From positions 627 through 64,626 of the forward strand of contig JACRPW010000044.1 in assembly GCA_016223005.1 (NCBI GenBank): a stretch of 64,000 nucleotides of DNA, read 5' to 3'. This DNA is from Deltaproteobacteria bacterium. Lineage in GTDB: Bacteria > Desulfobacterota > GWC2-55-46 > UBA9637 > GWC2-42-11. The translations under genes were made by a program, and so were the position numbers. The notes under the pieces are model-generated. The model saw only the letters and a list, made by a program, of their open reading frames with translations, was not told the origin of the DNA and ran no database searches. Positions 7,152-52,026 of this stretch are shown in pieces (the stretch's first letter is position 1; the number at the start of each line of letters is the position of its first letter).

Positions 7152-7897
7152 GCACGGTATTAACCATAGCAGGTTCTGACCCATCAGGCGGGGCAGGTAT
7201 CCAGAGAGATTTAAGGGTATTCTCGGATTTTAAGTGCAATGGTCTTTCTGCAATAACCGCCCTCACTGCGCAAAATTCAAAAAAGGTAAATGCAGTTTTT
7301 CCTATTCCTGCCCGATTTGTCAAAAGACAGATTGGTGTACTTGTTGAAGAATATAAAATAGACGGCTTGAAGACAGGCATGCTTGCAGCAGAGGGGATAG
7401 TTAAGGTTGTTGTTGGATTTTTAAAAAGAAGGCAGCAGAAAAACATTGTTGTTGACCCTGTATTTGTCTCAACAAGCGGTTATCCGCTCCTTGAAAAAAA
7501 AGGGGTTGCAAGATTGAAAAGCGAACTAATCCCTCTTGCAGACATTGTTACGCCAAATCTCTTTGAGGCGCATATACTTTCTGGGATAAAAATTAATGGC
7601 ATTGATGAAATGCATTCTGCGGCAGAGAGGATTAAAAGACTTGGTTGTAAGGCTGTGCTTGTTAAGGGAGGACACCTCCATAAAATTTCAAATTCCAAAT
7701 CCCAAATTTCAAATGATGTGCTATATGATGGCGAGGAATTTAAATTGTTTAAAACAAGAAGGGTTCAAAAAGACTTGCACGGCACAGGGTGCATTCTGTC
7801 AGCAGGCATTGCAGCAGGGCTTGCAAATGGGCTGGATATGCAGTCTGCGATTAAAAAAGCAAAAAGGCATGTTACAAGGATGCTAATTCAAATATAG
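7148..7897 (+). CDS. thiD: Hydroxymethylpyrimidine/phosphomethylpyrimidine kinase. It contains a translated heptamer-repeat insertion (KISNSKSQISND).
   Basis: LTIAGSDPSGGAGIQRDL... and a C-terminal GTGCxLSAAIAA motif. The repeat ttcaaat/tccaaat/cccaaat/ttcaaat lies at 7687-7714. Confidence 0.9.
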   Translation: MSTVLTIAGSDPSGGAGIQRDLRVFSDFKCNGLSAITALTAQNSKKVNAVFPIPARFVKRQIGVLVEEYKIDGLKTGMLAAEGIVKVVVGFLKRRQQKNIVVDPVFVSTSGYPLLEKKGVARLKSELIPLADIVTPNLFEAHILSGIKINGIDEMHSAAERIKRLGCKAVLVKGGHLHKISNSKSQISNDVLYDGEEFKLFKTRRVQKDLHGTGCILSAGIAAGLANGLDMQSAIKKAKRHVTRMLIQI

Positions 7898-7918
7898 TAA
7901 GTAGTTACCGCTTACTGT

Positions 7919-8368
7919 TTACTGCTCACCGCTTACCGCTTTTGTGATTTCTATCTGTCTTGAATTCTCGCCTGTATAATAAAATTTTATAAGAATATAT
8001 TCTGGCGGTAAAAGAGGCAATCCCTTTTCTGCCCACTCAACAACTGTTACTACATCTGTATAAAAAAAATCCTCTATGCCTGCTTCGGTCAGTTCACTAA
8101 CACTGCCTAGCCTGTAAATGTCAATATGATATAAAGGCATCCTCCCCTTATATTCATTTACTATTGTAAAAGACGGGCTTTTGACAAGTTCATTTACACC
8201 AAGCCCTTTGGCAAGCCCTTGAACAAATGTTGTCTTGCCAGAGCCAAGGTCTCCGATAAGGGCAATAACATCACCTGCTTTAAGTTTAGCGCCAATCTTT
8301 TTGCCAAGTTTCCTTGTTTCTTCTTGAGAGTTTGTGTTAAAGATTTCTAGTTTCACGATATATCTCAA
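7919..8368 (-). CDS. tsaE: tRNA threonylcarbamoyladenosine biosynthesis ATPase TsaE (YjeE)
   Basis: Walker A GDLGSGKTTF and typical length. The C-terminus overlaps a ttaccgc-type short repeat. Confidence 0.8.
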   Translation of the reverse strand: MRYIVKLEIFNTNSQEETRKLGKKIGAKLKAGDVIALIGDLGSGKTTFVQGLAKGLGVNELVKSPSFTIVNEYKGRMPLYHIDIYRLGSVSELTEAGIEDFFYTDVVTVVEWAEKGLPLLPPEYILIKFYYTGENSRQIEITKAVSGEQ

Positions 8369-8417
8369 ACCTGAAGGTTTGAGTTACAAACCCTGTGCAA
8401 GTCTGTAACTCAAGGCT

Positions 8418-14760: not shown

Positions 14761-15735
14761 TTAACCTTTATTCCTTACAGCCAAAAGCATCCTCTCAATA
14801 AGTTCTGTAAAATCTATGCCTGCACACCTTGCTGCCTTTGGCAGTAAACTCAGTTCTGTTAGACCAGGGACTGTGTTAAGTTCAAGAACATAGGGGTCAT
14901 TTTTTTTGTCAAGGCATACATCAACCCTTGCTGCGCCGCAGCACCCAAGGGCATTGTATGCATTAATGGCAGCCTCTTTTACCCTGCATTCAACCCCTTT
15001 CTCCAATGGTGCAGGCGCGATGTAATCTGTCATCCCTTTTGTATATTTTGACCTATAGTCATATAAACCTTTTTTGGGTTTTATCTCTACTACAGGCAAA
15101 GGTTCTCCGCTTAATATCCCTACAGTAACCTCCCTGCCCTGAATAAACCTTTCCAGGACAATCTTGTTATCAAACCTGAAGGCTTTTTTAATTGCCTTTT
15201 GCAAATCCTTTTTATCCTTTACAACAGTAAGCCCTATTGTTGAACCCTGCCTTGCAGGTTTTACTACAAGAGGAAATTTGTAATTTGTAGTTCGTAATTC
15301 GTAATTCTTAATTCCTAATTCGTAATTTCTTATAACCTGCCAATCAGGTGTTGGTATACCATGAAACCTAAAAATCTCCTTTGCTGCTGCCTTGTCAAAT
15401 GCCACTCCACTTGCAAGCACACCTGACCCTGTATATGGTATCCCCATTATCTCAAGGAGCCCCTGTATTGTGCCGTCTTCTCCATATTTGCCGTGTAGGG
15501 CGATAAATGCAAGTTTAATCTTCTTTTTCTCAATTACCTTTGCTGTATCCCTGCCTGCATCCACTGCAACCACTTTATAACCTTTACCCTTAAGCGCCTT
15601 ATATACAGCCATGCCTGAGCAGAGGGATACCTCCCTTTCAGATGACATCCCGCCCATCAAAACCCCTATTTTAAGTTTTTTTAAATTAGTAATTCGTAAT
15701 TCGTAATTCGTAATTTTTTTACTCCTCTCCGACAA
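14761..15735 (-). CDS. ddl: D-alanine--D-alanine ligase. It has a TTG start with a GAGGAGG SD. Heptamer-repeat peptides sit at the N-terminus (ITNYELRITN) and internally (NYELGIKNYELRTTNYKF).
   Basis: ATP-grasp Ddl motifs (KIGVLMGGMSSEREVSL, GSGVLASGVAFDK). The aattcgt-type repeats lie at 15684-15718 and 15275-15330. Confidence 0.92.
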   Translation of the reverse strand: MSERSKKITNYELRITNLKKLKIGVLMGGMSSEREVSLCSGMAVYKALKGKGYKVVAVDAGRDTAKVIEKKKIKLAFIALHGKYGEDGTIQGLLEIMGIPYTGSGVLASGVAFDKAAAKEIFRFHGIPTPDWQVIRNYELGIKNYELRTTNYKFPLVVKPARQGSTIGLTVVKDKKDLQKAIKKAFRFDNKIVLERFIQGREVTVGILSGEPLPVVEIKPKKGLYDYRSKYTKGMTDYIAPAPLEKGVECRVKEAAINAYNALGCCGAARVDVCLDKKNDPYVLELNTVPGLTELSLLPKAARCAGIDFTELIERMLLAVRNKG

Positions 15736-16660
15736 TCTTTATCTCCTCCTCAAGCAATACCCCTTTTTCCTTTAATACCCTATCCTTAATAATATTTATA
15801 AGTAACAGCACATCCTTTGTCTTTGCATCCCCAAGATTTACAATATAATTTGCGTGGACATCTGATACCATTGCATCACCTATCCTTGCACCCTTTAAAC
15901 CAACCTCATCTATGAGTTTGCCTGCGCAAAGCCCTTCAGGGTTTTTAAATATTGAGCCTGCATTCGGCAGGCGAACAGACTGGGTCTTTTCCCTCCTTTT
16001 AATAAATTCGTTCATTTGTTTTTCTATTATAGATACATCCCCTTTTTTAAATTTAAGATGAACCCTTGTAATTATATAATCCGGCTTAAGACTGCACGAC
16101 CTGTATGAAAAATGCAGTTCATCTCTTCTTATAAATATTTTACTGCCTCTTGTATCAGTCACATCAATCCCTGCCACAAGACTGCCTACATCAGCGCCGT
16201 ATGCACCTGCATTCATTGCCACTACCCCACCAATGGTTCCTGGTATTTGGACTGCAAATTCAAGCCCTGAAAGTCCCCTTTTACTACATTCATTCACAAT
16301 CTTTGCAAGTTTAACCCCTGCACCTGCGACCACATAGTCATCAGCCTGCCAGTATAAATCTTTAAATCCATCTGCGAGGTTTATTACAACACCCCTTATG
16401 CCGCCATCTCGGACAACAAGGTTTGTTCCAGCGCCAAGTAAAAAAACAGGGAAATCCTTTACATATGCAAACTTAAGTATCTCCTGAAGGTCATCTTCAT
16501 CCAGAGGAAACGCCATAACATCCGTAGGACCGCCTATTTTCATGGATGTCCACTCTTTCATCAGGACATCAAAGAGGATGCGTCCTTTGAAGTTGCAAGT
16601 TGCAAGCCTGCCCCTGTAAGCAGTAAACAGGGGTTGCAAGTTGCAAGTCTTATCTTTCAC
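15719..16660 (-). CDS. murB: UDP-N-acetylenolpyruvoylglucosamine reductase. The start is either GTG 16660 with a strong SD (which translates a repeat/hairpin element) or ATG 16561.
   Basis: FAD-binding MurB blocks (GGPTD, LLGAGTNLVV) and dcw position. Confidence 0.9.
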   Translation of the reverse strand: MKDKTCNLQPLFTAYRGRLATCNFKGRILFDVLMKEWTSMKIGGPTDVMAFPLDEDDLQEILKFAYVKDFPVFLLGAGTNLVVRDGGIRGVVINLADGFKDLYWQADDYVVAGAGVKLAKIVNECSKRGLSGLEFAVQIPGTIGGVVAMNAGAYGADVGSLVAGIDVTDTRGSKIFIRRDELHFSYRSCSLKPDYIITRVHLKFKKGDVSIIEKQMNEFIKRREKTQSVRLPNAGSIFKNPEGLCAGKLIDEVGLKGARIGDAMVSDVHANYIVNLGDAKTKDVLLLINIIKDRVLKEKGVLLEEEIKIVGEE

Positions 16661-16680
16661 TCTGTTAATTACCTCCTCTC

Positions 16681-18069
16681 TTAAACCTTGAAACTTGCAT
16701 CTTGAATCTTCTTTAAAATCTCATCCCCTATCTGCCATATATCACCTGCACCAAATGTAATAATCATATCATCAGACTTAACCATATCTGCCAGATAATT
16801 AGGCACATCCTTTTTATTAGGTATATACACAACATTTTTATGACCATACCCTTTGATTCCTTCAAACAAACCTTTACCTGTTACACCTTCAACCTTGCCC
16901 TCTCCGGCAGGGTATATATCAGTGAGTATGAGGATGTCTGCATCATTAAATGCAGAGAGAAATTCATTAAATAGGTCTTTTGTTCGTGTGTAGCGATGCG
17001 GCTGAAACACAGCGATAACCCGTTTATTCCAGCCGTCCTTTGCTGCCTTAAGGGTCGCCTTAATCTCCTCTGGATGGTGTCCATAATCATCAATAACTAT
17101 AACATCATCCACTGTCCCTCTTATCTGAAACCTCCGTTCAACGCCGCTAAAATCCTTAAGCCCATTTTTAATATCATCAAAATCCAAGCCGAGTTCTATA
17201 GCAACTGCGGCTGCAGCAAGGCAGTTATATACATTGTGGAGTCCAGGGGTATGAGTTAGAACGCAGCCAATTTTATCTGCCCTGTTCCATATTTCAAAGG
17301 ATGTTTCCATCCCATTAAATGAAATCCCTTTCGCATGATAGTCTGCCTGTGCAAAAAGCCCATAAGTTACATGTCTCCTCTCCACCTTTGGAATCAAAGA
17401 CTGCACATTTGGATGGTCAAGACACAAGACACTTAAACCATAAAACGGCACCTTGTTTATAAATGAGAGATAGGCACCTTTGACTTCGTCCATATCTTTA
17501 TAATGGTCCATGTGCTCCCTGTCTATATTTGTTACGACAGCAATTACAGGAGATAGTTTTACAAATGTCCCATCGCTTTCATCAGCCTCTGCAACAAGGA
17601 ACTCCCCGCTTCCAAGTTTTGCATTGGTTGCCATACTATTAAGCCTGCCGCCTATAACAACAGTGGGATCCATGCCAGCGATACTGAGTATCGTTGCAAT
17701 GATTGAGGTGGTCGTTGTCTTCCCATGCGTCCCTGCAACCAAAATCCCGTATTTCATCCGCATTAGTTCTGCAAGCATCTCTGCCCTTGGAATAACAGGC
17801 AAAAGTCTTTCATGGGCATGCCTTATCTCAGGGTTGTCCTCTTTCACTGCTGAGGAATAGACCACAACATCAGCGCCATCTATATTCTCTTTCTTATGGG
17901 ATATATGCACTGCTGCACCAAGAGATGCCAGCCGCTTTGTTATAGAAGATTCTTTCGCATCTGAGCCTGTAATCTTATATCCAAGGTTTAGAAGCACCTC
18001 TGCAATCCCGCTCATGCCTATTCCGCCTATCCCAACAAAATGTATATGTTTAATCCTCCCTTTATACAT
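16681..18069 (-). CDS. murC: UDP-N-acetylmuramate--L-alanine ligase
   Basis: IHFVGIGGIGMSGIAEVL N-terminus and GTHGKTTTTS P-loop. Confidence 0.95.
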   Translation of the reverse strand: MYKGRIKHIHFVGIGGIGMSGIAEVLLNLGYKITGSDAKESSITKRLASLGAAVHISHKKENIDGADVVVYSSAVKEDNPEIRHAHERLLPVIPRAEMLAELMRMKYGILVAGTHGKTTTTSIIATILSIAGMDPTVVIGGRLNSMATNAKLGSGEFLVAEADESDGTFVKLSPVIAVVTNIDREHMDHYKDMDEVKGAYLSFINKVPFYGLSVLCLDHPNVQSLIPKVERRHVTYGLFAQADYHAKGISFNGMETSFEIWNRADKIGCVLTHTPGLHNVYNCLAAAAVAIELGLDFDDIKNGLKDFSGVERRFQIRGTVDDVIVIDDYGHHPEEIKATLKAAKDGWNKRVIAVFQPHRYTRTKDLFNEFLSAFNDADILILTDIYPAGEGKVEGVTGKGLFEGIKGYGHKNVVYIPNKKDVPNYLADMVKSDDMIITFGAGDIWQIGDEILKKIQDASFKV

Positions 18070-19139
18070 GCATCCCTCTATAAATATCTTCTACAATAAT
18101 ACTAGCCGCATCAGGCATTCCCAATTGGTGTGCCCTTTCCTCAATCTCTTTTATCTTTACTAAATTTTCATAAAGTGAAGTCAATGCATGGGCAAGTTTT
18201 GCCCCATCCAGTTCTTCCTGTTTGAACATGACAGCAGCGCCTCTGTCTGCAAGATACCTTGCATTAACCTCCTGATGGTTGTCCGCAGCAAATGGATACG
18301 GGATAAGGATCGATGCCTTGCCAAGCGCCGTAATCTCTGCAATACTTGTTGCACCGCTCCTACAGATAATCAAGTCTGCCATTTTGTATGCATCTGCCAT
18401 ATCGTCAATAAAATTAAACACATTAGTTTTGAGTTTTGAGTTTATTGTATGTTTCTTTCACCCTCTCATAATCCTCTTCACCTGTCTGGTGGATGATATT
18501 TATTGAGCAATGTTTAAGATATTCCAGCGACTCAAGAAATATTGAGTTTATTGCCTTTGCACCTTGACTGCCTCCAAAAACCAGAATGGTGAATCCTTCG
18601 CCTTTCGCCTTTCGCCTTTCGCCTTTCGCCTTTAGTATTTCCTTCCTCACAGGATTTCCTGAAACTACCACCTTGCCCTTTGGAAAATATTTTTTTGCAT
18701 CAGGAAATGCAACAAATACCCTGTCAACAAACCTCCCAAGGTATCTGTTCGTAATGCCCGGCAGGGTATTTTGTTCAAGGATTATTGTCATAACCTTCAT
18801 AATCTTTGCAGCCGCTACAACTGGAAAGGCACTATACCCGCCTGCACCTACTACAAGGTCAGGCATATATCTTCTAATCAACTTTATAGATTTAAAAATC
18901 CCCATAAGTGCCTTTAAAATGGAAATCGCCCTATTTAATAATCCCTTTCCTTTCACACCTCCAACATCTAATGTCTCAAGATGGAAACCATATTTGTAGA
19001 GTATCTTTGCCTCCAGACCCTTCTTGCTCCCTATAAATGTAATCTCATTTCCAGAATCCCTTTCCTTAAAGATTTCTGCCAGTGCAATCGCTGGAAATAA
19101 ATGTCCTCCGGTTCCGCCTCCAGTTAGTATAATTTTCAA
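18062..19139 (-). CDS. murG: MurG glycosyltransferase. It is encoded as two ORFs in different frames (18423..19139 for the N-domain, 18062..18421 for the C-domain), joined at a 3-unit aaactca heptamer tract. Deleting one 7-nt unit restores a single frame.
   Basis: The N-ORF has GGGTGGHLFPAIALA. The C-ORF has FIDDMADAYKMADLIICRSGA, the conserved MurG C-terminal motif. The frames abut at 18424-18444. Confidence 0.85.
18424..18444. repeat. Heptamer tandem repeat (minus-strand aaactca x3) at the murG frame junction
   Basis: The + strand reads tagtttt gagtttt gagttta. Confidence 0.9.
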
Positions 19140-20245: not shown

Positions 20246-21663
20246 AGCGCCTCTACCAATTTTTTAAAGACATCCCCTCTCTCCTCATAACTCTTAAACA
20301 TATCAAAACTTGAACATGCAGGGGAAAGGAGGACTATGTCTCCGCTTTTTGCTGTATTGTGTGCCTTTTTAACAGCATCTTCCATTGACAAGGCGAATAC
20401 AGTCTCTGTGCAGGCACCCAGCGCCTTTTTCATCTTCTGTCTTGCCTCTCCTATAAGTATCAAGAGTTTGACCTTTTCCTTTATCAAATCTTTAAGCACA
20501 CTGTAGTCGCCGCCTTTGTCCTTACCACCTGCTATTAGGACAATTGGCGCATTAAACCCCTCCAGACACTTCTGCAAGGCGCCGATATTTGTGCCTTTTG
20601 AATCATCGTAATAGGAAACACCGTTGATCTCTCTTGCAAACTCTACCCTGTGCGGCAGGGCATCAAAGGCATTTATGATTTTGATTACTTCATCATCCTT
20701 TAAACCGCACATTTTTGCTGCCGCTATTACAGCCATTATGTTTTCTATGTTATGGATACCCTTAAGTTTGAAACCGACAGTTGGATATATTTCTTTTGCG
20801 CCATCAAGAGAATAAACAATCCTGTTATCCTTATAATAAACCCCCTCTTCCAGAACATGGGTGCTGCTGAAAGGGATGATACGGATTTGAGATTTGAGAT
20901 TTGAGATTTGAGATTTTATAACCGGGTCATCTATATTCACAACCGCAATATCCCCTTGCCCCTGATTTTTGAATATATTAAATTTTGCATCCGCATATTC
21001 CTTAAAATTTGCGTATCTGTCCAGATGGTCCTCGGTAATGTTCAGAAGTATAGAAATATACGGCTTAAACCGTCTTATGCCCTCCAGTTGAAAACTGCTT
21101 ACCTCTGCTACCACATAATCAGACCTTTCTTTTCCCATGGCATAGTCAATCAGAGGAGTACCAATATTGCCGCCCACAAAGACATCTCTGCCTGCATCAC
21201 TCAAAACCCTGCCCAGCAGTGCTGTGGTTGTAGTTTTGCCATTTGTTCCTGTAACAGCAATAATAGGGGTGTCTATAAAATTATATGCCAGTTCAATCTC
21301 GCTTATAACCTCAATACCTTTCTTTCTTGCCCCCTGTATAGGTTCTATACTTGACGGCACACCCGGGCTTAAGATTATAAGGTCTGCCTCTGTAAAAATA
21401 TCTGCCGGGTGTTTACCTGCTGCAACCTTTACCCCTTCCATGTCATCTGAATAAGGCAGGTCTTCTATTGGTTTTAAGTCTGTTACAGTAACAACTGCCC
21501 CCTTTTCCTTCAGGAACCTTATGGTAGAAAGTCCTGTAGATGCAAGACCGACAACAAGGACATGCTTGCCTTTCAGGTCAAACTGATTAATGCGAGAAAC
21601 GATGTAACGCGGGAAACGATGTAAGGTTTCCTGCCTTTCCTGCCTTTCCCGCCTTTCTCGCAT
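20242..21663 (-). CDS. murD: UDP-N-acetylmuramoylalanine--D-glutamate ligase. The ATG 21663 start with a GAGGTG SD gives a repeat-encoded N-terminal extension (MRERRERQERQETLHRF). There is an internal KSQISNLKSQI heptamer insertion.
   Basis: Mur ligase blocks (GTNGKTTTTAL). The gatttga x4 repeat lies at 20884-20911. Confidence 0.92.
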   Translation of the reverse strand: MRERRERQERQETLHRFPRYIVSRINQFDLKGKHVLVVGLASTGLSTIRFLKEKGAVVTVTDLKPIEDLPYSDDMEGVKVAAGKHPADIFTEADLIILSPGVPSSIEPIQGARKKGIEVISEIELAYNFIDTPIIAVTGTNGKTTTTALLGRVLSDAGRDVFVGGNIGTPLIDYAMGKERSDYVVAEVSSFQLEGIRRFKPYISILLNITEDHLDRYANFKEYADAKFNIFKNQGQGDIAVVNIDDPVIKSQISNLKSQIRIIPFSSTHVLEEGVYYKDNRIVYSLDGAKEIYPTVGFKLKGIHNIENIMAVIAAAKMCGLKDDEVIKIINAFDALPHRVEFAREINGVSYYDDSKGTNIGALQKCLEGFNAPIVLIAGGKDKGGDYSVLKDLIKEKVKLLILIGEARQKMKKALGACTETVFALSMEDAVKKAHNTAKSGDIVLLSPACSSFDMFKSYEERGDVFKKLVEAL

Positions 21664-22765: not shown

Positions 22766-22821
22766 CGGAAATTGTAGATTTTAAATTTTATAAACATTTT
22801 GCAATTCCCAATTCCCAATCT

Positions 22822-24039: not shown

Positions 24040-24060
24040 TGTCCACTGACACTGACACTA
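23994..24060. repeat. Long hairpin whose arms are themselves tandem tgtcag(t) repeats (agtgtcagtgtcagt ... actgacactgacact) in the murF-murE spacer. The right arm overlaps the murE stop.
   Basis: The two arms form a 15-nt inverted repeat with no mismatches and a ~22-nt loop. Confidence 0.85.
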
Positions 24061-25560: not shown

Positions 25561-25611
25561 CTTTCGCCTTTCGCCGTGAAAAGCATGCTTTTCACCCTTA
25601 CGCCTTTAGCC
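25561..25611. repeat. Mini-palindrome element: cgccttt-type direct repeats flanking the palindrome gtgaaaagcatgcttttcac (murE-ftsI spacer). It is homologous to 50666-50710.
   Basis: The 20-nt palindrome is identical in both copies, and the flanks are related. Confidence 0.9.
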
Positions 25612-27945: not shown

Positions 27946-27962
27946 CTTCTTGACCCTTGACC

Positions 27963-28898
27963 CTATATCCTCTCCGCCGCCCTCATCTTTGCACTCCGCG
28001 CACGGGGATTATTTTTTATTTCAGTTTCAGATGGTATTACAGGTTTTTTTGTAATAACCTTCACTAGCGGCACCCTTTCACAAATACACATGGGCAGGTC
28101 AGGGGGACAGATGCACACCTTTTCCAGAGACCTGAATCTTTCTTTTACTATCCTGTCTTCCAAAGAATGATATGAAATAACAACGAATCTGCCTTCATGG
28201 GCAAGAAGGGATACACCTTCATCTATCGCTCTTTTAAGATTTTCAAGTTCATTATTCACCTTAATTCTGATTGCCTGAAATGTCTTTGTGGCAGGATGTA
28301 TGCTGGTGGGATGGTATCTTACAGGTATTGCCGAGTATACAATATCTGCAAGTTCTTTTGTGGTTGTTATCTTACAAACCCTCCTCTTTTCCACAATCTT
28401 CTTTGCTATCCTTCTTGCCCACCTCTCTTCCCCATACTGATAAATAACATCACCTAAGTCTTGTTCAGAAAGACCATTAACCAGATCACAGGCTGAAGTG
28501 CCTTTTGTCCTGTCCATCCTCATATCAAGATACCCTTCATGCCTGAAACTAAAGCCCCTTTCAGGTTTTTCAAAATGGTAAGAAGACACACCAAGGTCAA
28601 GGAGTATCCCATTAACTTCTATTACATGATGTTCTTCAAGTATAGACTTTATATCTGCAAAGTTTCCCCTTATTATAGTTACCCTTGAAATGTCTTCTAT
28701 TAACCTTTTTTCTGCAGCCAAGACCGCATCTTCATCCCAATCAATGCCTATGACCTTTCCATCAGGTTTTATTGCATTAAGTATGTTTAGTGTATGTCCA
28801 CCTCCCCCTAATGTTCCGTCAACATATGTATTACCCGGGCTGCAATTTAAAAATCTTACAACCTCCCCTGACAATACTGATGTGTGTTCAAAATCCAC
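27963..28898 (-). CDS. rsmH: 16S rRNA m4C1402 methyltransferase RsmH (MraW)
   Basis: HTSVLSGEV...DGTLGGGGH SAM-binding N-terminus. Confidence 0.95.
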   Translation of the reverse strand: MDFEHTSVLSGEVVRFLNCSPGNTYVDGTLGGGGHTLNILNAIKPDGKVIGIDWDEDAVLAAEKRLIEDISRVTIIRGNFADIKSILEEHHVIEVNGILLDLGVSSYHFEKPERGFSFRHEGYLDMRMDRTKGTSACDLVNGLSEQDLGDVIYQYGEERWARRIAKKIVEKRRVCKITTTKELADIVYSAIPVRYHPTSIHPATKTFQAIRIKVNNELENLKRAIDEGVSLLAHEGRFVVISYHSLEDRIVKERFRSLEKVCICPPDLPMCICERVPLVKVITKKPVIPSETEIKNNPRARSAKMRAAERI

Positions 28899-28900
28899 TC

Positions 28901-29347: not shown

Positions 29348-29554
29348 GGTGGTTACAAGATTTACCTTTCTTGAATTTATTCTACCCCTGTCCCCCACCC
29401 AAATAAAAACTTATCCACTTTATACCACTTTATCCCACTGTGGCTAAACTATATGCCTCTTGGCAATTCTTGTCAAGTAAATTTTTAAGCAAATTTTAAG
29501 AGTTTTTTTATAATATTTTAGGACTTGAATAAATCCTTAAGAGTGCTATTATAA

Positions 29555-35952: not shown

Positions 35953-37257
35953 ATGGAATTGGTTCAGATGATTAAGTCAAAGAGTGCCAGAATTGGCATA
36001 ATTGGTCTTGGGTATGTTGGACTTCCGCTTGTTATTGAATTCTGTAAGGCAGGATTCAAGGTTACAGGCTTTGATGTGGATAATGAAAAGGTAGAACTGT
36101 TAAAACAGGGCAAGAGTTATATAAAACATATTGACTCAAAACTCATAACTCAAAACTCAAAACTCTTCATTCCAACAACCGATTTTAGTCAGTTGTCAAC
36201 TATGGACTGCATCATTATATGCGTTCCCACACCGCTGAATAAATACCGCGAACCTGATATGTCATATGTTTTTAATACAACTAAGACCATTGCGAAGTAT
36301 CTAAAAAGAGGTCAGATTATAATTCTGGAATCAACTACATATCCAGGCACAACAGATGAAGATGTAAAAGAAATACTTGAGGAATCAGGGTTAAAGGCAG
36401 GAGAGGACTTTTATCTTGCATTTTCTCCTGAGAGAGAAGACCCGAACAACAGGGATTTTTCCACAAGCACAATTCCTAAGGTTGTTGGCGGTTTCACCCC
36501 AAAATGTCTTGAGATAGCCCGAACACTTTATGACAATATAGTTGTTAAGACAGTCCCTGTTTCATCTACAAGAACTGCTGAGGCGACTAAACTCCTTGAA
36601 AATATCTATCGCGCAGTAAACATTGCCCTTGTGAATGAACTCAAAATGCTATTTGACAGGATGGGGATTGATGTATGGGAGGTAATAGAGGCATCAAAGA
36701 CAAAGCCTTTTGGCTTTCAGGCATTCTATCCGGGACCAGGACTCGGTGGGCACTGCATTCCGGTTGACCCCTTCTATCTTACATGGAAGGCGCGGGAATA
36801 TGACTTTTCAACAAGGTTTATTGAACTTGCAGGCGAGATAAATACGAATATGCCCTATTATGTTGTTCAAAGGACTATAGAGGCATTGAACGAAAGAGGT
36901 AAGAGTATAAATGGTGCAAAGGTTTTGATATTAGGGCTTGCATATAAAAAAGATGTGGATGACCCAAGAGAATCCCCGTCTTTCAGACTTATAGAGTTGT
37001 TGGAGGGAAAAGGTGCAATTGTTGATTATAATGACCCCTACATACCAAAGGCGCCAAAGATGAGAAGGCATAAGATTAATAAGGAATCTGTCCTATTAAC
37101 AAAGGAAAATCTGGCGGGATATGACTGTATTGTTATAGCGACTGACCATTCAAGTTATGATGCAGAGTTTATAGTGAATAATTCAAATCTTATAATTGAT
37201 ACCAGAAATCTTGTCGGCAAAAAAGGCATAAAGGATAGGAGGGTGGTAAAGGCATGA
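35953..37257 (+). CDS. Nucleotide-sugar dehydrogenase (UDP-glucose / UDP-N-acetylhexosamine 6-dehydrogenase family) with an in-frame ctcaaaa x5 repeat insertion (KLITQNSKLF)
   Basis: IGLGYVGLP NAD-binding motif and catalytic GGHCIPVDP. Confidence 0.85.
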   Translation: MELVQMIKSKSARIGIIGLGYVGLPLVIEFCKAGFKVTGFDVDNEKVELLKQGKSYIKHIDSKLITQNSKLFIPTTDFSQLSTMDCIIICVPTPLNKYREPDMSYVFNTTKTIAKYLKRGQIIILESTTYPGTTDEDVKEILEESGLKAGEDFYLAFSPEREDPNNRDFSTSTIPKVVGGFTPKCLEIARTLYDNIVVKTVPVSSTRTAEATKLLENIYRAVNIALVNELKMLFDRMGIDVWEVIEASKTKPFGFQAFYPGPGLGGHCIPVDPFYLTWKAREYDFSTRFIELAGEINTNMPYYVVQRTIEALNERGKSINGAKVLILGLAYKKDVDDPRESPSFRLIELLEGKGAIVDYNDPYIPKAPKMRRHKINKESVLLTKENLAGYDCIVIATDHSSYDAEFIVNNSNLIIDTRNLVGKKGIKDRRVVKA

Positions 37258-38688: not shown

Positions 38689-40134
38689 ATGAAGGCAATA
38701 ATCCTTGCAGGTGGAAGCGGGACAAGGCTTTGGCCCTTGTCCAGAAGGAACTATCCCAAACAGTTTCTAAAACTAAACGGCGATAAGTCCCTTCTTCAGC
38801 AGACAGTGGAAAGATTGTCAGGTGCAGTTCAACTTGAGGACATTATCGTAATGACGAACAGTAATTATAAATTCCATGTGCTGTCAGACCTTCAGGCTCT
38901 TAACTCTAAACTCTCAACTCTGAACTCTAATATCATCCTTGAACCAGCGGCAAGAAATACTGCGCCTGCTATTGCGCTAGGGGTTAAATATTGTCTTGAA
39001 AGACTCGGCTGTGATTATGATGAAATAATATTCCTGTCGCCTTCAGACCACATCATCAAACCCAATGACAAGTTCACAGAATACCTTGCATCTGCAAAGG
39101 CTATTGCAGAGAAAGGCTATATAGTAACATTTGGGATAAAACCGGATAGACCTGAGACAGGATATGGATATATAAAAGTCAGAAGTCAGGAGCCTGCCCC
39201 CGCAGGCTTCAATCGGGGGTCAGAAGTCAGAAGTCAGGAATTCTTGAGAGTTGAAAGGTTTGTGGAAAAACCAGATGTAGAGACTGCAAGACGTTATTTA
39301 GATGAAGGGAATTACTACTGGAATTCAGGCATGTTTGCATTCAGTATAGGCACAATGATTAAGGAATTTGAAAGACATGCACCGGCAATAAGTAATATGC
39401 TAACTAAAAGTTTTGACGAGATGCTGTCAAACTTTAAGGATATGCCTGATGTATCCATAGACTACGCTGTAGCAGAAAAATCAAAGGATGTTGTAACAGT
39501 CCCCCTTGATTTATACTGGAATGACATTGGCTCATGGGATTCATTGTGTGATGTTATGGATAAGGATGAAGATGGAAATATCAAAAAGGGTGATGTTATT
39601 GCTATAGACACAAAAAATACCCTGATAATAGGAAATAAAAGGCTTATATCAACCATTGGACTTAATGACTGTCTTATAGTTGAAACTGACGATGCTGTGC
39701 TTATAGCAAGAAAAGGAGAGACTCAAAAGGTTAAAGATATAGTTAGAAAGTTAAAGGCAGATGGCAGAAAAGAGGCAGAAGAACATGTTACCACATATAG
39801 GCCATGGGGCAGTTATACAGTGCTTGAAGAGGGGGAGCGGTATAAGATAAAAAGGATTGTTGTTTACCCAAATAAAAAGTTAAGCCTGCAGATGCACCAT
39901 CACAGGAGCGAACACTGGGTTGTTGTGAAAGGAACTGCACGGGTGACAGTTGGCGATATAAAAAGGACTATCCATGAAAACGAATCTGCATATGTCCCTA
40001 AATCAACTGTCCATAGACTTGAAAACCCCGGCAAAGTGCCTCTAGAGATAATAGAGGTTCAAAATGGTGAATATGTTGGAGAAGATGATATTGTGAGGGT
40101 TGATGATGATTATGGGAGACAAAAACTTACTTGA
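38689..40134 (+). CDS. manC: Mannose-1-phosphate guanylyltransferase / mannose-6-phosphate isomerase (ManC type, cupin C-terminus). It carries an in-frame insertion of a heptamer/mini-palindrome element.
   Basis: MKAIILAGGSGTRLWPLSR N-terminus and C-terminal cupin. The ORF listed from 38632 is an upstream extension overlapping the PMM gene. Confidence 0.88.
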   Translation: MKAIILAGGSGTRLWPLSRRNYPKQFLKLNGDKSLLQQTVERLSGAVQLEDIIVMTNSNYKFHVLSDLQALNSKLSTLNSNIILEPAARNTAPAIALGVKYCLERLGCDYDEIIFLSPSDHIIKPNDKFTEYLASAKAIAEKGYIVTFGIKPDRPETGYGYIKVRSQEPAPAGFNRGSEVRSQEFLRVERFVEKPDVETARRYLDEGNYYWNSGMFAFSIGTMIKEFERHAPAISNMLTKSFDEMLSNFKDMPDVSIDYAVAEKSKDVVTVPLDLYWNDIGSWDSLCDVMDKDEDGNIKKGDVIAIDTKNTLIIGNKRLISTIGLNDCLIVETDDAVLIARKGETQKVKDIVRKLKADGRKEAEEHVTTYRPWGSYTVLEEGERYKIKRIVVYPNKKLSLQMHHHRSEHWVVVKGTARVTVGDIKRTIHENESAYVPKSTVHRLENPGKVPLEIIEVQNGEYVGEDDIVRVDDDYGRQKLT

Positions 40135-43884: not shown

Positions 43885-43959
43885 GGACAGAGTCAAAGCT
43901 AAAAAATCATTCTCCACGGTACTCTGACTCTTTGACCCTCTGACTCTCCGACTCTAAGT

Positions 43960-45051: not shown

Positions 45052-45240
45052 ATGAAGAGGATTTATAGTCTGATTGTTGTATTATTGTTAGTATCTCCTA
45101 TGTTTCTTGCTGCTTCATGCGGTAAGAAGGCAGAGGAAACAAAGCCAGCAGAAACAGCAGCTCCAGCAGCACCTGCAGCACCAGCCCCAGAGGCAGCACC
45201 AGCAGCACCAGCCCCAGAGGCAGCACCAGCAAAGAAGTAA
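45052..45240 (+). CDS. Small Ala/Pro-rich lipoprotein (lipobox LAASC) built from 21-nt tandem repeats
   Basis: Signal peptide plus Cys lipobox. The unit PAAPAPEAA is repeated; the DNA repeats lie at 45175-45232. Confidence 0.6.
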   Translation: MKRIYSLIVVLLLVSPMFLAASCGKKAEETKPAETAAPAAPAAPAPEAAPAAPAPEAAPAKK

Positions 45241-45289
45241 CTTATATGCCGGGTATAAGATAGGGAAGGGAGAGGTAATTATTCATTCA

Positions 45290-46609: not shown

Positions 46610-46629
46610 GAATTTAATATAGCATAAAA

Positions 46630-49324: not shown

Positions 49325-49403
49325 TTGTTATATGTCCTTGCATAAGTAAGATGTCATTGCGAGGATTTTTGTTCCGAAGCAATCTCTAATTATTTGATTT
49401 TAT

Positions 49404-49479
49404 TGGAGCGGGCGACGGGATTCGAACCCGCGACCCCAACCTTGGCAAGGTTGTGCTCTACCAGCTGAGCTACACCCGC
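49404..49479 (-). tRNA. tRNA-Gly (anticodon GCC), CCA encoded
   Basis: The reverse complement folds as a cloverleaf: GCGGGUG acceptor, anticodon loop UUGCCAA, T-loop GGUUCGAAUCC. Confidence 0.9.
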
Positions 49480-49624
49480 TTAAAGACAGTGAATAGTTAT
49501 TAGTAAGTGGTGTTTAGTAAATACTAGACAAAAACTTTTTTACATTAATTCCTGTAAAGATTAATAATAACTTGTTTTAGAATTTATCATACTATATAAT
49601 GCTGTCAAGATTTTTTTCTATCAT

Positions 49625-50356
49625 ATGGATAAATCCCAAGAGGAAATTCAGAAACCAAAAAACTGGTTTGAGAGTCTGGACTGTGCTATAGAGGGTGCTA
49701 TCTTCGCTGTAAAGACTGAACGGCACATGAGGTATCACTATGTAATTGCTGCTGTTATCCTGCTGACAAGTCTTCTGCTGAATCTGACAACAACTGAATT
49801 TCTCATATTTGCCCTTTCCATAGTGCTGCTCTTATTTGCTGAGATGTTTAATACTGCAATAGAGCATCTGGGTAACATCATTTGGGAGAAACATCACATC
49901 TTCATAAAACAGGCAAAGGATATAGCAGCAGGTGCAGTTCTAATATCTTCTATTGGAGTTTTCCTTACATCTTATGTAATATTTTCAAAATATCTGTACC
50001 GTCCTGCTGAACTATTTCTAATAGGGGTAAAGACATTGTCAGGTCATATAGCAATTATATCACTGCTTTTCGTTTTTATTGCTGTTGTCTTCTCAAAGGC
50101 ATATTTACATAAAGGAAGACCGCTTCACGGGGGTATGCCAAGCGGTCATTCTGCAGTTGCATTTTCTCTGTGGGTATCAATATCGCTTATTACAGTAAAC
50201 CCTTTGGTGACAATTTTATCATTCGTTATGGCTGTCATGGTCAGCCAAAGCAGGCTCATTGGCCGCATCCATACTTTCTTTGAAGTATTTATGGGCGCTC
50301 TGCTGGGAGCAGGTCTCACATTTCTAATCTTTTACCTTTTTTCAAATACCCTCTGA
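49625..50356 (+). CDS. Fusion protein: prokaryotic diacylglycerol kinase (DgkA) N-domain plus a PAP2-family phosphatase C-domain
   Basis: The N-terminal half has the DgkA-like AIEGAIFAVKTERHMRYH...EMFNTAIEHL. The C-terminal half has PAP2 motifs KGRPLHGGMPSGHS...SRLIGRIHT. Confidence 0.7.
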   Translation: MDKSQEEIQKPKNWFESLDCAIEGAIFAVKTERHMRYHYVIAAVILLTSLLLNLTTTEFLIFALSIVLLLFAEMFNTAIEHLGNIIWEKHHIFIKQAKDIAAGAVLISSIGVFLTSYVIFSKYLYRPAELFLIGVKTLSGHIAIISLLFVFIAVVFSKAYLHKGRPLHGGMPSGHSAVAFSLWVSISLITVNPLVTILSFVMAVMVSQSRLIGRIHTFFEVFMGALLGAGLTFLIFYLFSNTL

Positions 50357-52026
50357 TGTCAAATAAATCAATAATAGCATCTGTTATATCAGGCACTATT
50401 ATGATATTTGCATTCCCGCCTTTTGATATATGGGTTATAGGTTGGTTTGGCATGGCGCCTTTATTCTTTGCCATTTATGATAAAAAGCCGTTGCAGGCAT
50501 TTGCACTGGGCTTTATCTGGGGCATTGTTTTTTTTCTCGGCACTGTTTACTGGGTTGTAAACTCAATGGTAAATTACGGTGGTGTGCCTGTATGGGCAAG
50601 TGTGCTGGCGCTTCTGCTTCTTGTAATTGTCTTAAGCCTTTACCCTGCTGTATTCGCTTATTTTACCTTTAGCCGTGAAAAGCATGCTTTTCACCCTTCA
50701 GCCTTTCGCCTGATTTTTATCCCTTTCCTCTGGGTCAGTCTTGAATTTGTGCGGACATATCTTTTTACAGGCTTTCCTTGGGTCTTACTTGGTTATTCAC
50801 AAACAGCATTCCTCCCAATAATGCAGATTGCTGATATAACAGGTGTCTATGGTGTATCGTTTTTGATAATCATGGTCAATGTTTTTCTATTCAATTGCGG
50901 ACTGCAGATTGCAGATTGCGGATTTAAAATTAAAATTTCTAAAATGGAATGGATTATAGTATTTTCGGTTTTAATCCTTGTCTTTGGTTATGGTCATTTA
51001 AGGATTGGACAGATTGATAATTTAACTAAAAACTGGAGGCAGATTAAGATAGGTATTGCCCAGGGCAATATAGATCAGGCGCAGAAATGGGACCCTGCAC
51101 ATCAGGAAGGAACGATAGATATTTACAGGCAGATTAGTATAGACATTGCACAAAATGAAAAGGACATTGACCTTATTATATGGCCAGAAACAGCCACACC
51201 ATTTTATCTTCAGTCTGATGAAAAATTCGGTCCGCTTATCTTTGATATAGCAAAAACTCTGGCAGTAAACCTTATTACAGGAAGTCCTGCGCATGAGTAT
51301 ACATCTGATGGTAAAACTATAAATTACTATAACAGCGTGTTTCTGATTTCAAAGCAGGGAGGCATTGTCAATAGATACGATAAAGTCCATCTCGTGCCTT
51401 TCGGCGAATATGTCCCTTTTAAAAGATTTCTTCCATTTGAAAAACTTGTTGCAGGTGTCGGGGATTTCAGTTCAGGAAAAAACTTCAAGCCCCTTGCATT
51501 AAATAATGATGATACATTTGGCATCCTCATATGTTTTGAGGCAATATTTCCTGACATAGCAAGGCAGCTTTTGAAAAATGGCGCAGACTTTTTAATCACA
51601 GTAACAAATGATGCATGGTTTGGAAGGTCATCTGCACCATATCAGCACCTATCCCAATCATTAGTGCGGGCTGTTGAAGGCAGGACATTTTTAATCCGCT
51701 CTGCCAATACAGGTATAAGCGCAGTGATTGACCCTGTTGGAAGGATAAAGGTTAAAAGCGGACTGTTTACAAGAGAAGGTTTAGTAGATACAATATCATT
51801 AAAAGAAAGGTCTTTCACAACATTTTATACCCGATATGGCGATGTGTTTGCCATTGGATGCATATTCATCTCAATAGTTATATTTATTACTAATGCAAGA
51901 AAAAGGGGGCAGACTTGCCTATTGACATTTGCCCTCTTTATCTTCTCTATCACCTTTTTTACCTCTGCCGTCCCCTTTTCTTATTTTTCTTATTGGTCCC
52001 CTTTTCTTGTTTTCTTATTATCCTAA
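50356..52026 (+). CDS. lnt: Apolipoprotein N-acyltransferase (CN-hydrolase). It carries an in-frame mini-palindrome insertion (FSREKHAFHPSAFRL) and a heptamer-repeat insertion (GLQIADCGFKIKI).
   Basis: Multi-TM N-terminal domain plus CN-hydrolase with E...K...C (ILICFEAIFPD). The repeats lie at 50666-50710 and 50894-50935. Confidence 0.88.
   Translation: MSNKSIIASVISGTIMIFAFPPFDIWVIGWFGMAPLFFAIYDKKPLQAFALGFIWGIVFFLGTVYWVVNSMVNYGGVPVWASVLALLLLVIVLSLYPAVFAYFTFSREKHAFHPSAFRLIFIPFLWVSLEFVRTYLFTGFPWVLLGYSQTAFLPIMQIADITGVYGVSFLIIMVNVFLFNCGLQIADCGFKIKISKMEWIIVFSVLILVFGYGHLRIGQIDNLTKNWRQIKIGIAQGNIDQAQKWDPAHQEGTIDIYRQISIDIAQNEKDIDLIIWPETATPFYLQSDEKFGPLIFDIAKTLAVNLITGSPAHEYTSDGKTINYYNSVFLISKQGGIVNRYDKVHLVPFGEYVPFKRFLPFEKLVAGVGDFSSGKNFKPLALNNDDTFGILICFEAIFPDIARQLLKNGADFLITVTNDAWFGRSSAPYQHLSQSLVRAVEGRTFLIRSANTGISAVIDPVGRIKVKSGLFTREGLVDTISLKERSFTTFYTRYGDVFAIGCIFISIVIFITNARKRGQTCLLTFALFIFSITFFTSAVPFSYFSYWSPFLVFLLS
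50666..50710. repeat. Second copy of the gtgaaaagcatgcttttcac mini-palindrome element, inside lnt and translated in-frame
   Basis: Same palindrome with cctttagcc / ccttcagcctttcgcc flanks. Confidence 0.9.

Follow-up and report, generated by a model that had tools for sequence, protein, structure and literature searches.

Why do core housekeeping genes of a bacterium carry tandemly repeated heptamers in short arrays, and how could such arrays come to be translated within conserved proteins? These questions are raised by a 64,000-nucleotide stretch of DNA (the window) from an uncultured groundwater bacterium, in which we count about 30 short heptamer arrays in total. An earlier note on the window had described them as peptide insertions or extensions, produced by an active slippage or insertion process and tolerated only where the reading frame is preserved.

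Period-7 arrays in the window

With TRF at a score of ≥30, 29 period-7 arrays are found in the window, compared with a mean of 1.30 (maximum of 4) in 40 codon-preserving shuffles; at a score of ≥40, these numbers are 10 and 0, respectively. The earlier observation of period-7 arrays is confirmed. Exact lag-7 runs of ≥10 matches number 12 versus 0.10 in 50 dinucleotide shuffles, and the exact-run scan of the window returns 0 runs for each of periods 4, 5, 8, 10, and 11, with period 7 the sole enriched non-triplet period. The arrays are discrete and cover 1.1% of the window; masking them abolishes the lag-7 signal (0.2561 versus 0.2563 for lag 4 and 0.2565 for lag 5). Adjacent units are closer in sequence than in permuted order, at marginal significance only (180 versus 194 ± 7.4, P = 0.037).

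The dcw (cell-division) region holds 20 of the 29 arrays (P = 4.6e-5). About half of the arrays lie in frame within genes, the hosts being ThiD, Ddl, MurG (two sites), MurD, the UDP-sugar dehydrogenase, ManC (two sites), and Lnt, and the others occupy operon spacers or gene ends. Every intragenic site named in the earlier note harbors an array, with coordinates exact or within a few bases, and several of these "imperfect" arrays are in fact perfect (e.g., murG, 5.3 copies; murD, 4.7 copies). Array lengths in the window are not biased toward multiples of 21 or 3, so the frame is not kept by frame-neutral triples, as had been suggested.

That the arrays are products of sequencing or assembly is scarcely credible. 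Short-read contigs do terminate within arrays, and the one frameshift, in murG, falls in an array; against this, Logan contigs assembled independently from two runs match every base of the arrays, with 100% identity to the window through 16590–16710, 17418–17432, and 18597–18633, which argues that these are not assembly artefacts. Data of other studies (unrelated MAGs and metagenome contigs) also show arrays at the same sites, and the arrays are translated in frame within otherwise intact conserved genes. Assembly error is a possibility only for the copy number at 18425–18443.

Arrays within coding sequences

The intragenic arrays are as follows (unit words of minus-strand genes are given in the sense orientation):

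7683..7714, plus strand: AAATTYC, 4.6 copies, in frame in ThiD, residues 179–189 (KISNSKSQISN)
15275..15330, minus strand: ACGAATT, ~8 copies, in frame in Ddl, residues 137–154 (RNYELGIKNYELRTTNYK)
18425..18443, minus strand: MurG site 2, CAAAACT, 2.7 copies, at which the frame breaks
18597..18633, minus strand: MurG site 1, perfect AGGCGAA, 5.3 copies, in frame, residues 169–181 (KAKGERRKAKGEG)
20884..20916, minus strand: perfect TCAAATC, 4.7 copies, in frame in MurD, residues 250–260 (KSQISNLKSQI)
24059–24073, 24234–24248, and 24759–24774, minus strand: three two-copy heptamer duplications within MurE
36134..36169, plus strand: ACTCAAA, 4.6 copies, in frame in the UDP-sugar dehydrogenase, residues 61–71 (DSKLITQNSKL)
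38897..38930, plus strand: AACTCTN, 4.9 copies, in frame in ManC (ALNSKLSTLNSN)
39219..39237, plus strand: perfect GTCAGAA, 2.7 copies, in frame in ManC (SEVRSQ), in a variable inserted loop
50894..50935, plus strand: ATTGCRG, 4.4 copies, in frame in Lnt, residues 180–190 (CGLQIADCGFKI)

The description of these arrays as low-complexity insertions mostly fails, since at five sites (Ddl, MurD, both MurG sites, and the UDP-sugar dehydrogenase) the net change in length is only −3 to +2 residues. The Ddl segment falls three residues short of its E. coli DdlB counterpart and exceeds that of close relatives by one, MurD gains two residues relative to solved MurD, the dehydrogenase shows no insertion relative to solved homologues, and the loop at MurG site 1, which directly precedes the FTILVFGG strand, has the same length as in array-free relatives. 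Conservation of the array segments in MurD, MurG (site 1), and Ddl falls in the lowest 0.3 to 0.7% of windows (0.4% for Ddl). The Ddl, MurD, MurG, and dehydrogenase arrays replace a poorly conserved segment, and intragenic arrays are mostly not insertions. Net gains are seen in ThiD (a loop five to six residues longer than in solved structures), ManC (38897..38930; six residues relative to T. maritima ManC), and Lnt (12 residues relative to E. coli Lnt). In ManC, the LNSKLxTLNSN peptide of the first array is common to several homologues of 72 to 77% identity and the GSEVRSQ(E/K)F peptide of the second also occurs in homologues; homologues from other sources (72–79% identity) have both, a finding that the earlier note had itself named as contrary to its proposal.

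The arrays of murG differ in their effect on the frame. Site 2 is translated as NKLKTQN*, followed in the +1 frame by VFNFIDD..., and the Y-to-V spacer is 25 nt versus 24 nt in array-free relatives. The earlier note had pointed to murG for single-unit changes that are not frame-neutral; the frameshift lies at this second, previously unlisted array (18425–18443). Contig L001 (run SRR12113407) carries at least 3.4 copies here versus 2.7 in the window, a difference that need not be genuine and could stem from an error of assembly; with 1.7 or 4.7 copies an allele would be in frame, and L164 has an in-frame array of a different word at this position. Among the sites that can be compared between assemblies, a copy-number difference, which the earlier note had proposed to look for, is seen only here: MurG site 1 has the same copy number in the SRR12113395 assembly, ManC is unchanged over the whole protein in a Logan assembly, copy number included, and copy number is identical wherever else it can be compared. 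The arrays are thus not hypermutable on the scale seen here.

One might take the murG frameshift as the OFF state of a contingency locus, in which slippage provides on/off phase variation as in neuO (PMC13001214), given that the frame is lost exactly at an array whose copy number differs in a second assembly and could restore the frame. We consider this very improbable, as the arrays reside in essential housekeeping genes present once (murG, murD, ddl, and lnt) rather than in surface or accessory genes, they are short (≤8 copies), all except one are in frame in the window and in every relative examined, and the other comparable sites are stable between runs.

Spacer arrays, orthologous sites, and shared words

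The remaining arrays lie in spacers or at gene ends (sense words for minus-strand genes):

7905..7941, no strand assigned: TTACCGC, 5.3 copies, at the convergent thiD/tsaE junction, overlapping the final TsaE codons
12615..12675, minus strand: two adjacent, mutually part-inverted arrays, TACAATT and AAAATTG, filling the ftsA/ftsZ spacer
15684..15718, minus strand: ACGAATT, 4.6 copies, murB/ddl spacer
16590..16648, minus strand: a hairpin with a short GCAACTT array on either side, at the murC/murB junction and MurB ORF start
16679..16710, minus strand: degenerate TTCAAGA, 4.6 copies, over the final MurC codons and stop
22769..22819, minus strand: two arrays, AAAATTT and GGAATTG, filling the murF/mraY spacer
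25561..25575, minus strand: two copies of the AAAGGCG class, ftsI/murE spacer; the word is that of MurG site 1
27949..27964, minus strand: two copies of the AAGGGTC class at the rsmH stop; the word is that of the internal MurE array (24234)
56473..56503, plus strand: AAATCTT/ATTTCAA array between the SRP RNA and the next ORF
59785..59857, plus strand: two inverted arrays, AATTGAA ... AAAATTT, 3' of an ORF, forming a long hairpin

Three positions given earlier are reassigned here. The array at 15684–15718, previously taken as a second site inside ddl, is intergenic, with the stop codon of murB (15719) on one side and the probable start of ddl (LKIGVLMGG) on the other, and the 324-aa ORF that spans it is not the annotated Ddl protein; the site at 15275–15330 stands. 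Among the intergenic examples, the 7896–7945 region does contain a heptamer array (7905..7941), but 43915–43950 has a period of 8 and 58105–58195 is a GATTAC direct and inverted repeat with a period of 11/22.

The dcw loci of related bacteria (2.04 Mb) contain 96 period-7 runs versus 8 to 20 for other non-triplet periods, with most of the period-7 runs in a few lineages. The density in the window is ~13-fold that of most relatives' dcw loci and in this sense unusual, as the earlier note held, but heptamer repeats have already been described in other bacteria (PMC4679880, PMC4692102, PMC2700814). Contrary to the expectation of lineage-specific insertions, the murD, murG, and murB/ddl sites are also occupied by arrays in related genera, with words that are identical, related, or different. 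The murD site harbors TCAAATC ×4.7 in the window, TCAAATC ×3.9 in L164, AATCTCG ×4.9 in L082, and a degenerate AAAnCnC in L003, and its array length is constant between lineages ~40% apart in protein sequence. MurG site 1 is occupied by AGGCGAA in the window, AGTCAGG in L082 and L003, and AGGGTCA in L164, and the murB/ddl spacer by ACGAATT, AAATTTC ×5.6 (L002), or AAATTAC ×4 (L164); the ftsA/ftsZ spacer of L003 also has arrays of different words. At these orthologous sites the arrays are internally homogeneous, with flanks down to 55 to 70% protein identity, a pattern of concerted evolution.

The words belong to several classes with no common motif. They are not different at each site, as had been thought: seven identical word pairs are found versus 0.3 to 0.75 expected, all on the sense strand, and there are no reverse-complement pairs in the window. 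Sites that share a word lie 7 to 18 kb apart (MurG site 1 and ftsI/murE; MurG site 2 and the dehydrogenase; MurE and the rsmH end). Spread of preformed blocks by copy-and-insert or ectopic gene conversion, as a very small mobile repeat, would account for one word at distant sites. It is consistent with word reuse at several sites in L090 and Methylomirabilota loci and with the insertions in ThiD, ManC, and Lnt relative to distant homologues. We nevertheless regard this reading as improbable. Terminal inverted repeats, target-site duplications, and a fixed element length are not seen at the arrays, five intragenic arrays show no net insertion, and orthologous sites are occupied across genera, indicating long residence rather than recent insertion; furthermore, the recurrent intragenic words form a single stop-free, polar-coding class (AAAnCTC) that selection alone would favor.

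Somewhat less improbable, but still unlikely, is that the arrays are cis-acting RNA elements of polycistronic mRNAs (protein landing pads, translation enhancers, or processing/stability hairpins), the intragenic copies being tolerated by-products; such a role was already proposed for the TAACTGA repeats of Beggiatoaceae (PMC4679880). Many arrays fill spacers just 5' of Shine–Dalgarno sequences and start codons (ftsA/ftsZ, murB/ddl, murF/mraY, and ftsI/murE), and the same spacers bear arrays of differing words in several lineages, Methylomirabilota among them. Word recurrence is limited to the sense strand, arrays are enriched in the dcw operon, and the inverted pairs fold well: the 59785..59857 hairpin has a predicted stability of −29.2 kcal/mol (z = −5.8; 0/200 shuffles fold as well), and z is −2.5 for the ftsA/ftsZ spacer. 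In most spacers, however, structure is not significant (e.g., 7905..7941), no word or motif is held in common within the genome or across lineages, and about half of the arrays are in coding sequence, where they follow protein constraints. The sense strand is also the presumed leading strand for every gene in the window, so strand specificity cannot be assigned to RNA.

Proposed slippage under selection and the closest known systems

We favor, at a probability of roughly two in three, the reading that these arrays are heptanucleotide simple-sequence repeats (long SSRs) of the kind known from cyanobacteria (the STRR class), Geobacter, Xanthomonas, and Beggiatoaceae, maintained by slippage and filtered by selection. 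Short arrays would be seeded at a few permissive sites, and strands that misalign out of register (±7 nt) when DNA is replicated or repaired would keep the units alike. Net slippage would add or remove whole units; transient misalignment followed by realignment may instead let a unit overwrite its neighbor or the adjoining flank at constant length, which would account for in-place segment replacement. Selection would then purge frame breaks, stops, and altered constrained residues or loop lengths, leaving arrays in operon spacers, gene ends, and the least constrained protein loops and linkers; surviving intragenic arrays would be translated in all three phases into bland, polar, 7-residue periodic peptides, probably with no dedicated function.

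Slippage filtered by selection fits the homogeneous arrays between diverged flanks, the unit adjacency, the murG copy difference that coincides with the frameshift, and the location in least-conserved segments. It sits less easily with identical copy numbers at other sites, and the constant length of the murD array over ~40% protein divergence is not expected from free slippage without strong selection on length. Sense-only recurrence, dcw enrichment, and inverted hairpin pairs are not predicted by plain slippage and hint at function or directed spread. For the unit length of seven, only a polymerase footprint has been put forward in print (Mrazek 2007, cited in PMC4679880, PMC4692102).

The window is a dense new example of an already known class of bacterial repeats rather than a novel element type. 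Heptanucleotide repeats are the commonest long SSRs in many bacteria (PMC4679880, PMC4692102). Like the window arrays, the prokaryotic long SSRs surveyed by Mrazek, Guo and Shah (2007), as reported in those papers, have 7-nt units in direct tandem as by far the commonest non-triplet period, a patchy distribution across lineages, and slippage as the proposed cause. Coding-region repeats in the survey, as so reported, are mainly multiples of three, whereas about half of the heptamer arrays of the window are in frame, in essential genes, and mostly leave protein length unchanged. The STRR of Calothrix and Nostoc (as cited in PMC4692102) and the GGGAATC/GGGGAYT repeats of Xanthomonas and Nostoc (PMC4692102) are likewise operon-spacer heptamers, sometimes in inverted pairs, that vary in length and sequence between the same genes of related species; they use one or few genome-wide consensus words, some G-rich and quadruplex-forming, in contrast to the many A/T-rich words here. 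Tandem STRR1–3, GGGAATC, TAACTGA, GGACCGG, and AAGACTC are all absent from the window. Within a related phylum (Desulfobacterota), Geobacter metallireducens harbors heptanucleotide elements within and between genes, GGACCGG ×4 (49 copies) and MTYCTGA ×5, which form a BLAST-matched family with one conserved GC-rich word in a fixed four copies, whereas word and copy number vary by site in the window (PMC2700814). The TAACTGA repeats of marine Beggiatoaceae, some Cyanobacteria, and Bacteroidetes comprise two to six copies of a single word mostly a few nucleotides 5' of start codons; this word stops in all three frames and is thus excluded from ORF interiors, with a few repeats at extreme ORF ends, MurG included (PMC4679880). 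The AAGACTC repeat of neuO, a gene of the E. coli K1 phage CUS-3, is also intragenic and likewise read in three phases as a 7-residue periodic polar peptide, and its word differs at a single base from AAAACTC, the word that MurG site 2 shares with the dehydrogenase; the repeat slips, and is read through when the copy number is divisible by 3 (PMC13001214). The neuO repeat is highly polymorphic (3–53 copies) and lies at the 5' terminus of an accessory gene, where it serves as a phase switch (PMC13001214), whereas the arrays described here, of two to eight copies, are mostly stable and reside in loops of essential genes.

Discrete period-7 arrays in and around the dcw cluster

TRF identifies 29 head-to-tail period-7 arrays in the window (2.1 to 7.6 copies, score ≥30), 20 of which fall within the dcw region, between 7.6 and 28 kb (7600-28000; binomial P = 4.6e-5). 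Codon-preserving shuffles within genes, 40 in all, give 1.30 such arrays at this threshold and none at a score of ≥40, where the window has 10. Counting stretches of 10 or more exact matches at lag 7, we obtain 12 in the window and 0.10 in dinucleotide shuffles; at periods 4, 5, 8, 10, and 11 the window has no stretch of this length. The arrays are 15 to 56 nt long and cover 728 bases, or 1.1% of the window; when they are masked, lag 7 behaves the same as lags 4 and 5, with no diffuse period-7 signal in the rest of the window, and the signal thus resides in discrete arrays. Logan contigs from two sequencing runs are identical to the window across several arrays, and this exact match in independent contigs rules out an artefact of this assembly. 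The period-7 repeats described in the earlier note are therefore real, on the strength of both the shuffles and the independent contigs.

The window has a GC content of 41%, and proteins deposited from its MAG include MBI5682548-52 (GenBank). Its nearest genomes in two large collections are groundwater Deltaproteobacteria/Thermodesulfobacteriota MAGs, with 71% MurC identity at best; gene content and these nearest relatives rule out a cyanobacterial or large-sulfur-bacterium host, which the STRR and TAACTGA repeats known from those groups had brought to mind and whose repeat words do not occur in tandem here. The right half carries plus-strand housekeeping genes, and the left half contains the following operon:

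11.4-29.4 kb, minus strand: complete dcw cluster (mraZ, rsmH, ftsL, ftsI, murE, murF, mraY, murD, ftsW, murG, murC, murB, ddl, ftsQ, ftsA, ftsZ)

GC skew and AT skew both switch sign at ~28000-29550, where gene directions diverge, with the dcw cluster running leftwards and coaX and fusA rightwards. A replication origin near 29 kb, where the GC skew switches, was considered and rejected, since DnaA boxes show no enrichment across the window (29 versus 21 expected) and no origin features were found at ~28000-29550. Upstream of mraZ (28901-29398, minus strand), three direct repeats of AGTGG[G/T/A]ATAA with a period of 10 nt (29411-29440) sit just downstream of a promoter-like pair, TTGACA-17-TATAGT, a layout that fits the one expected of an MraZ operator at the dcw promoter.

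Three further features were recorded outside the cluster:

249-1310, minus strand: 353-aa ORF with a canonical Cas12a (Cpf1) N-terminus (MENESIFEKFTNKYQISKTLRFELKPIGK...; Pfam REC1 PF18501, E = 4.8e-31)
1584-2151, minus strand: small two-gene pair, putatively of the BrnT/BrnA toxin-antitoxin type (MKFEWDSDKSSSNKSTHGIDF...)
45145-45231: CCAGCAGCA-type period-9/27 repeat, an Ala/Pro-rich low-complexity stretch

The Cas12a-like ORF stops after about 350 residues, so that the gene is truncated or frameshifted; its remainder would run past the contig end, and the window shows no CRISPR array. The putative toxin contains an in-frame 33-nt tandem duplication at 1929-2002 (WIVISKLQKKI twice). The period-9/27 repeat is hosted by an unannotated 182-aa ORF (45107-45655, plus strand) that overlaps the 3' end of rarA/mgsA on the opposite strand.

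Array placement in proteins and at orthologous sites

About half of the 29 arrays are intragenic (see table), and MurC and MurE additionally carry two-copy heptamer duplications inside their genes.

Table. Arrays internal to coding genes: residues, frame, and net length relative to homologues.
ThiD; residues 179-189; in frame; +5 to +6 versus distant solved homologues
Ddl; residues 137-154; in frame; -3 versus E. coli DdlB, +1 versus close relatives
MurG site 1 (18597-18633); residues 169-181; in frame; 0 (13 residues versus 11-14 in array-free relatives)
MurG site 2 (18425-18443); residues 233-239; listed as in frame, holds the frame break; 25 nt versus 24 nt in relatives
MurD; residues 250-260; in frame; +2 versus solved MurD, 0 versus L003, L005, and L007 (dcw-locus contigs)
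UDP-sugar dehydrogenase; residues 61-71; in frame; no gap versus solved homologues
ManC; residues 89-100 and 196-202; in frame; +6, and +11 to +14, versus distant solved homologues
Lnt; residues 180-190; in frame; +12 versus distant solved homologues

The non-internal arrays are placed as follows:

Spacers: ftsA|ftsZ, murB|ddl, murC|murB, murF|mraY, ftsI|murE
Gene ends and junctions: rsmH stop, thiD|tsaE junction
Others: after the SRP RNA, after the ORF at 59.8 kb

The spacer arrays of murB|ddl, ftsA|ftsZ, murF|mraY, and ftsI|murE precede start codons by no more than a few nucleotides. A second site assigned to the ddl coding region in the earlier note falls instead in the spacer that separates the stop codon of murB from the conserved start of ddl; a 324-aa ddl ORF that would take it in differs from the deposited protein. 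Three intergenic heptamer examples had also been proposed, one of which does have a period of 7, whereas the other two are non-heptamer short repeats in spacers, namely, a period-8 array at 43922-43955 (CTCTGACT x4.2), just upstream of rnhB, and a GATTAC-motif repeat at 58105-58195, with direct and inverted copies and a period of about 11/22, between ORFs.

The intragenic arrays had been read as peptide insertions or extensions, with triples of heptamers (21 nt) noted as frame-neutral. For the most part they are not insertions, with little or no net length change at Ddl, MurD, MurG, and the dehydrogenase, and array lengths (19-56 nt) show no bias to multiples of 3 or 21, so the frame is not maintained through units being appended in threes. 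The arrays in MurD, MurG site 1, and Ddl lie in the least conserved 0.3 to 0.7% of each protein's windows, and MurG site 2 ranks at the 8th percentile of conservation.

The most telling result is that related genera have arrays at these sites too, with the same or other words (given on the sense strand). In murD, TCAAATC is present at x4.7 in the window and at x3.9 in its closest relative, dcw-locus contig L164 (65% MurG identity); contig L082 has AATCTCG x4.9, and L003 a degenerate AAAnCnC array of equal length, translated as IKSQTPNLKAQI against IKSQISNLKSQI. MurG site 1 reads AGGCGAA in the window, AGTCAGG in L082 and L003, and AGGGTCA in L164, with loops of 13 to 29 residues in array carriers versus 11-14 in array-free relatives; at MurG site 2, L164 has an 11-residue in-frame array of a different word. 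The murB|ddl spacer is filled with ACGAATT in the window, AAATTTC in contig L002, and AAATTAC in L164, and the two repeat peptides of ManC, LNSKLxTLNSN and GSEVRSQ(E/K)F, are found in 72-77%-identity homologues from other sources. The arrays are thus long-standing residents of particular sites, homogenised within each lineage as the word drifts, a pattern of concerted evolution.

Heptamer arrays, often as inverted pairs, also fill dcw spacers in contigs L014, L016, L090, L017, L066, and L102, and are absent from the dcw loci compared in close relatives such as L084 and L085; L005 and L007 are likewise free of arrays. Across 2.04 Mb of such dcw loci, we count 96 period-7 runs versus 8-20 for other non-triplet periods. 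L066 and L102 belong to the Methylomirabilota, an unrelated phylum with the same array habit in the same operon; they carry GC-rich GAGAGCC/GCGAGCC arrays of up to 24 copies in dcw spacers (L102 5870-6039; L066 10416-10471 and 16498-16563), as well as GGAAACT arrays paired with the reverse complement CCAGTTT around murC, murB, and ftsQ.

The mraY|murD junction (21588-21657, minus strand) contains period-17 (x2.2) and period-9 (TTTCCTGCC x3.4) tandem repeats, which the annotated 473-aa MurD includes as the peptide MRERRERQERQETLHRF. Sequence at this position is unrelated in relatives, and the N-terminal extension is thus probably not part of the protein.

The murG frame break and the origin of the arrays

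The N-terminal 238 codons of murG end at a stop inside the site 2 array, with the other 119 codons in the +1 frame, and GenBank annotates a 238-aa fragment. L001, a Logan contig assembled from run SRR12113407, matches the window base for base over 2,752 bases up to this array, at which it carries at least 3.4 copies versus 2.7 in the window. Elsewhere copy number agrees between assemblies, at murG site 1 (SRR12113395) and over all of ManC (Logan assembly). Either the allele in the MAG is mis-assembled or a minority one, or the population is heterogeneous, and each case is a consequence of the array. A k = 21 assembly collapse was rejected as a simple cause of the 19-nt array, as no fewer than 20 periodic bases would survive it; the same contig also contains perfect arrays of 33 and 37 nt, which is further evidence against it. 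If the ribosome underwent programmed +1 frameshifting at AAA-A, both the frame and the usual loop of 8 residues would be regained, but we regard this as only remotely likely because neither a stimulatory signal nor conservation was found. An intact same-species MurG was sought and not found. For copy-number comparison, genome and metagenome scans returned nothing above 71% MurC identity, and exact-protein look-ups recovered three short Logan contigs only, with no match for Ddl, MraY, FtsZ, FtsA, ThiD, the dehydrogenase, Lnt, or either MurG fragment.

Phase variation, as in a neuO-type contingency locus, would have copy number switch a gene on and off, and MurG site 2 does set the frame in this way: with its 25-nt spacer the gene is out of frame, whereas a loss of 7 nt or a gain of 14 nt (alleles of 1.7 or 4.7 copies) would put it in frame. 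However, the hosts are essential housekeeping genes rather than accessory or surface-related ones, every other array is in frame in the window and in relatives, and the sites that could be compared show a stable copy number. We favor instead strand misalignment out of register by one unit, followed by selection, which fits homogeneous arrays in diverged genes, the copy-number difference at one site, and the unconstrained positions occupied; the greater likeness of adjacent units is counted in its favor as well. Transient misalignment and realignment would copy a unit over its neighbor or flank, which would explain replacement at constant length.

Spread of the arrays as pre-formed blocks, for example, as a miniature mobile repeat (MITE), is opposed by the lack of terminal inverted repeats, target-site duplications, or a defined length, and by ends that merge into the flanks. 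A role at the RNA level in polycistronic mRNAs would accord with arrays in operon spacers, with words on the sense strand, and with two inverted array pairs that fold well (z = -5.8 and -2.5); it is weakened by the want of a common motif, and predicted structure is significant in only two of eight spacer-array regions.

Beyond misalignment and selection, we give roughly one chance in seven to a dedicated, strand-specific, and length-preserving homogenisation that, instead of passive slippage, overwrites loops and spacers in place. In one form, a transient ±7-nt misalignment may be tied to the replication/repair machinery of certain lineages. Such a process may underlie the same sites across genera, the drifting word, and the reuse of few words on the sense/leading strand, and may favor the dcw operon in three or more lineages that are unrelated to one another, Methylomirabilota among them. 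If true, array-bearing and array-free sister lineages could reveal what fixes the unit at seven.

The locus offers a compact comparative system, in which the same essential genes and spacers have arrays in several related genera but are array-free elsewhere. Arrays that hold place and length while the word changes make two things testable: homogenisation by length-preserving misalignment, and co-variation of replication/repair genes with array presence. In practice, the arrays break short-read assemblies, can cause frameshifts, whether spurious or real, in essential genes such as murG, and give N-terminal ORF extensions that mislead gene callers (Ddl, MurB, and MurD).

Relation to known heptanucleotide repeats

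An excess of seven-base repeats has been known since 1990 in cyanobacteria and since 2007 in genomes at large; to our knowledge, the bacterial excess has never been explained. Among the 28 arrays compared here, seven pairs share a sense-strand word versus 0.3-0.75 expected, and no pair has reverse-complement words, a strand specificity that can be assigned to neither transcription nor replication because their directions coincide in the window. Intragenic arrays mostly belong to the AAAnCTC class and its neighbors, which are stop-free in three phases and encode K/S/Q/T/N/L-rich peptides, and in spacers AATTG/AAAATT words predominate; the use of the AAAnCTC class in genes can be accounted for by selection on translated arrays.

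According to Mrazek 2007, as cited in PMC4679880 and PMC4692102, heptanucleotide repeats are the commonest long SSR class in many bacteria, and a polymerase footprint has been proposed as the reason for seven. Heptamer families are described from cyanobacteria, Xanthomonas, and Nostoc (PMC4692102) and from Beggiatoaceae (PMC4679880); those of Geobacter metallireducens lie both inside and between genes (PMC2700814), and the neuO repeat is a heptamer array readable in frame (PMC13001214). None of these word families occurs in tandem in the window. STRR1 (CCCCAGT), STRR2 (TTGGTCA), and STRR3 (CAACAGT) have no tandem on either strand, and their hosts are (heterocystous) cyanobacteria, in contrast to the Deltaproteobacteria bacterium MAG examined here. 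TAACTGA, the Beggiatoaceae type, occurs as two single copies; its repeats lie a few nucleotides ahead of start codons, and of the window's arrays several spacer ones are so placed and about half are intragenic. GGACCGG, the Geobacter metallireducens element, which forms a dispersed BLAST-recognisable family with four tandem copies, is absent from the window, and the neuO word AAGACTC is of the same class as the intragenic AAAnCTC words. The prokaryotic heptanucleotide class of long SSRs consists of head-to-tail 7-nt units above compositional expectation, and the arrays described here show both features. As the known word families are not in tandem here, the window is a new, dense member of this known class. 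To what was known it adds arrays that occupy essential cell-wall genes in place and in frame, that persist at orthologous sites while their words turn over, and that recur in the dcw spacers of unrelated lineages.
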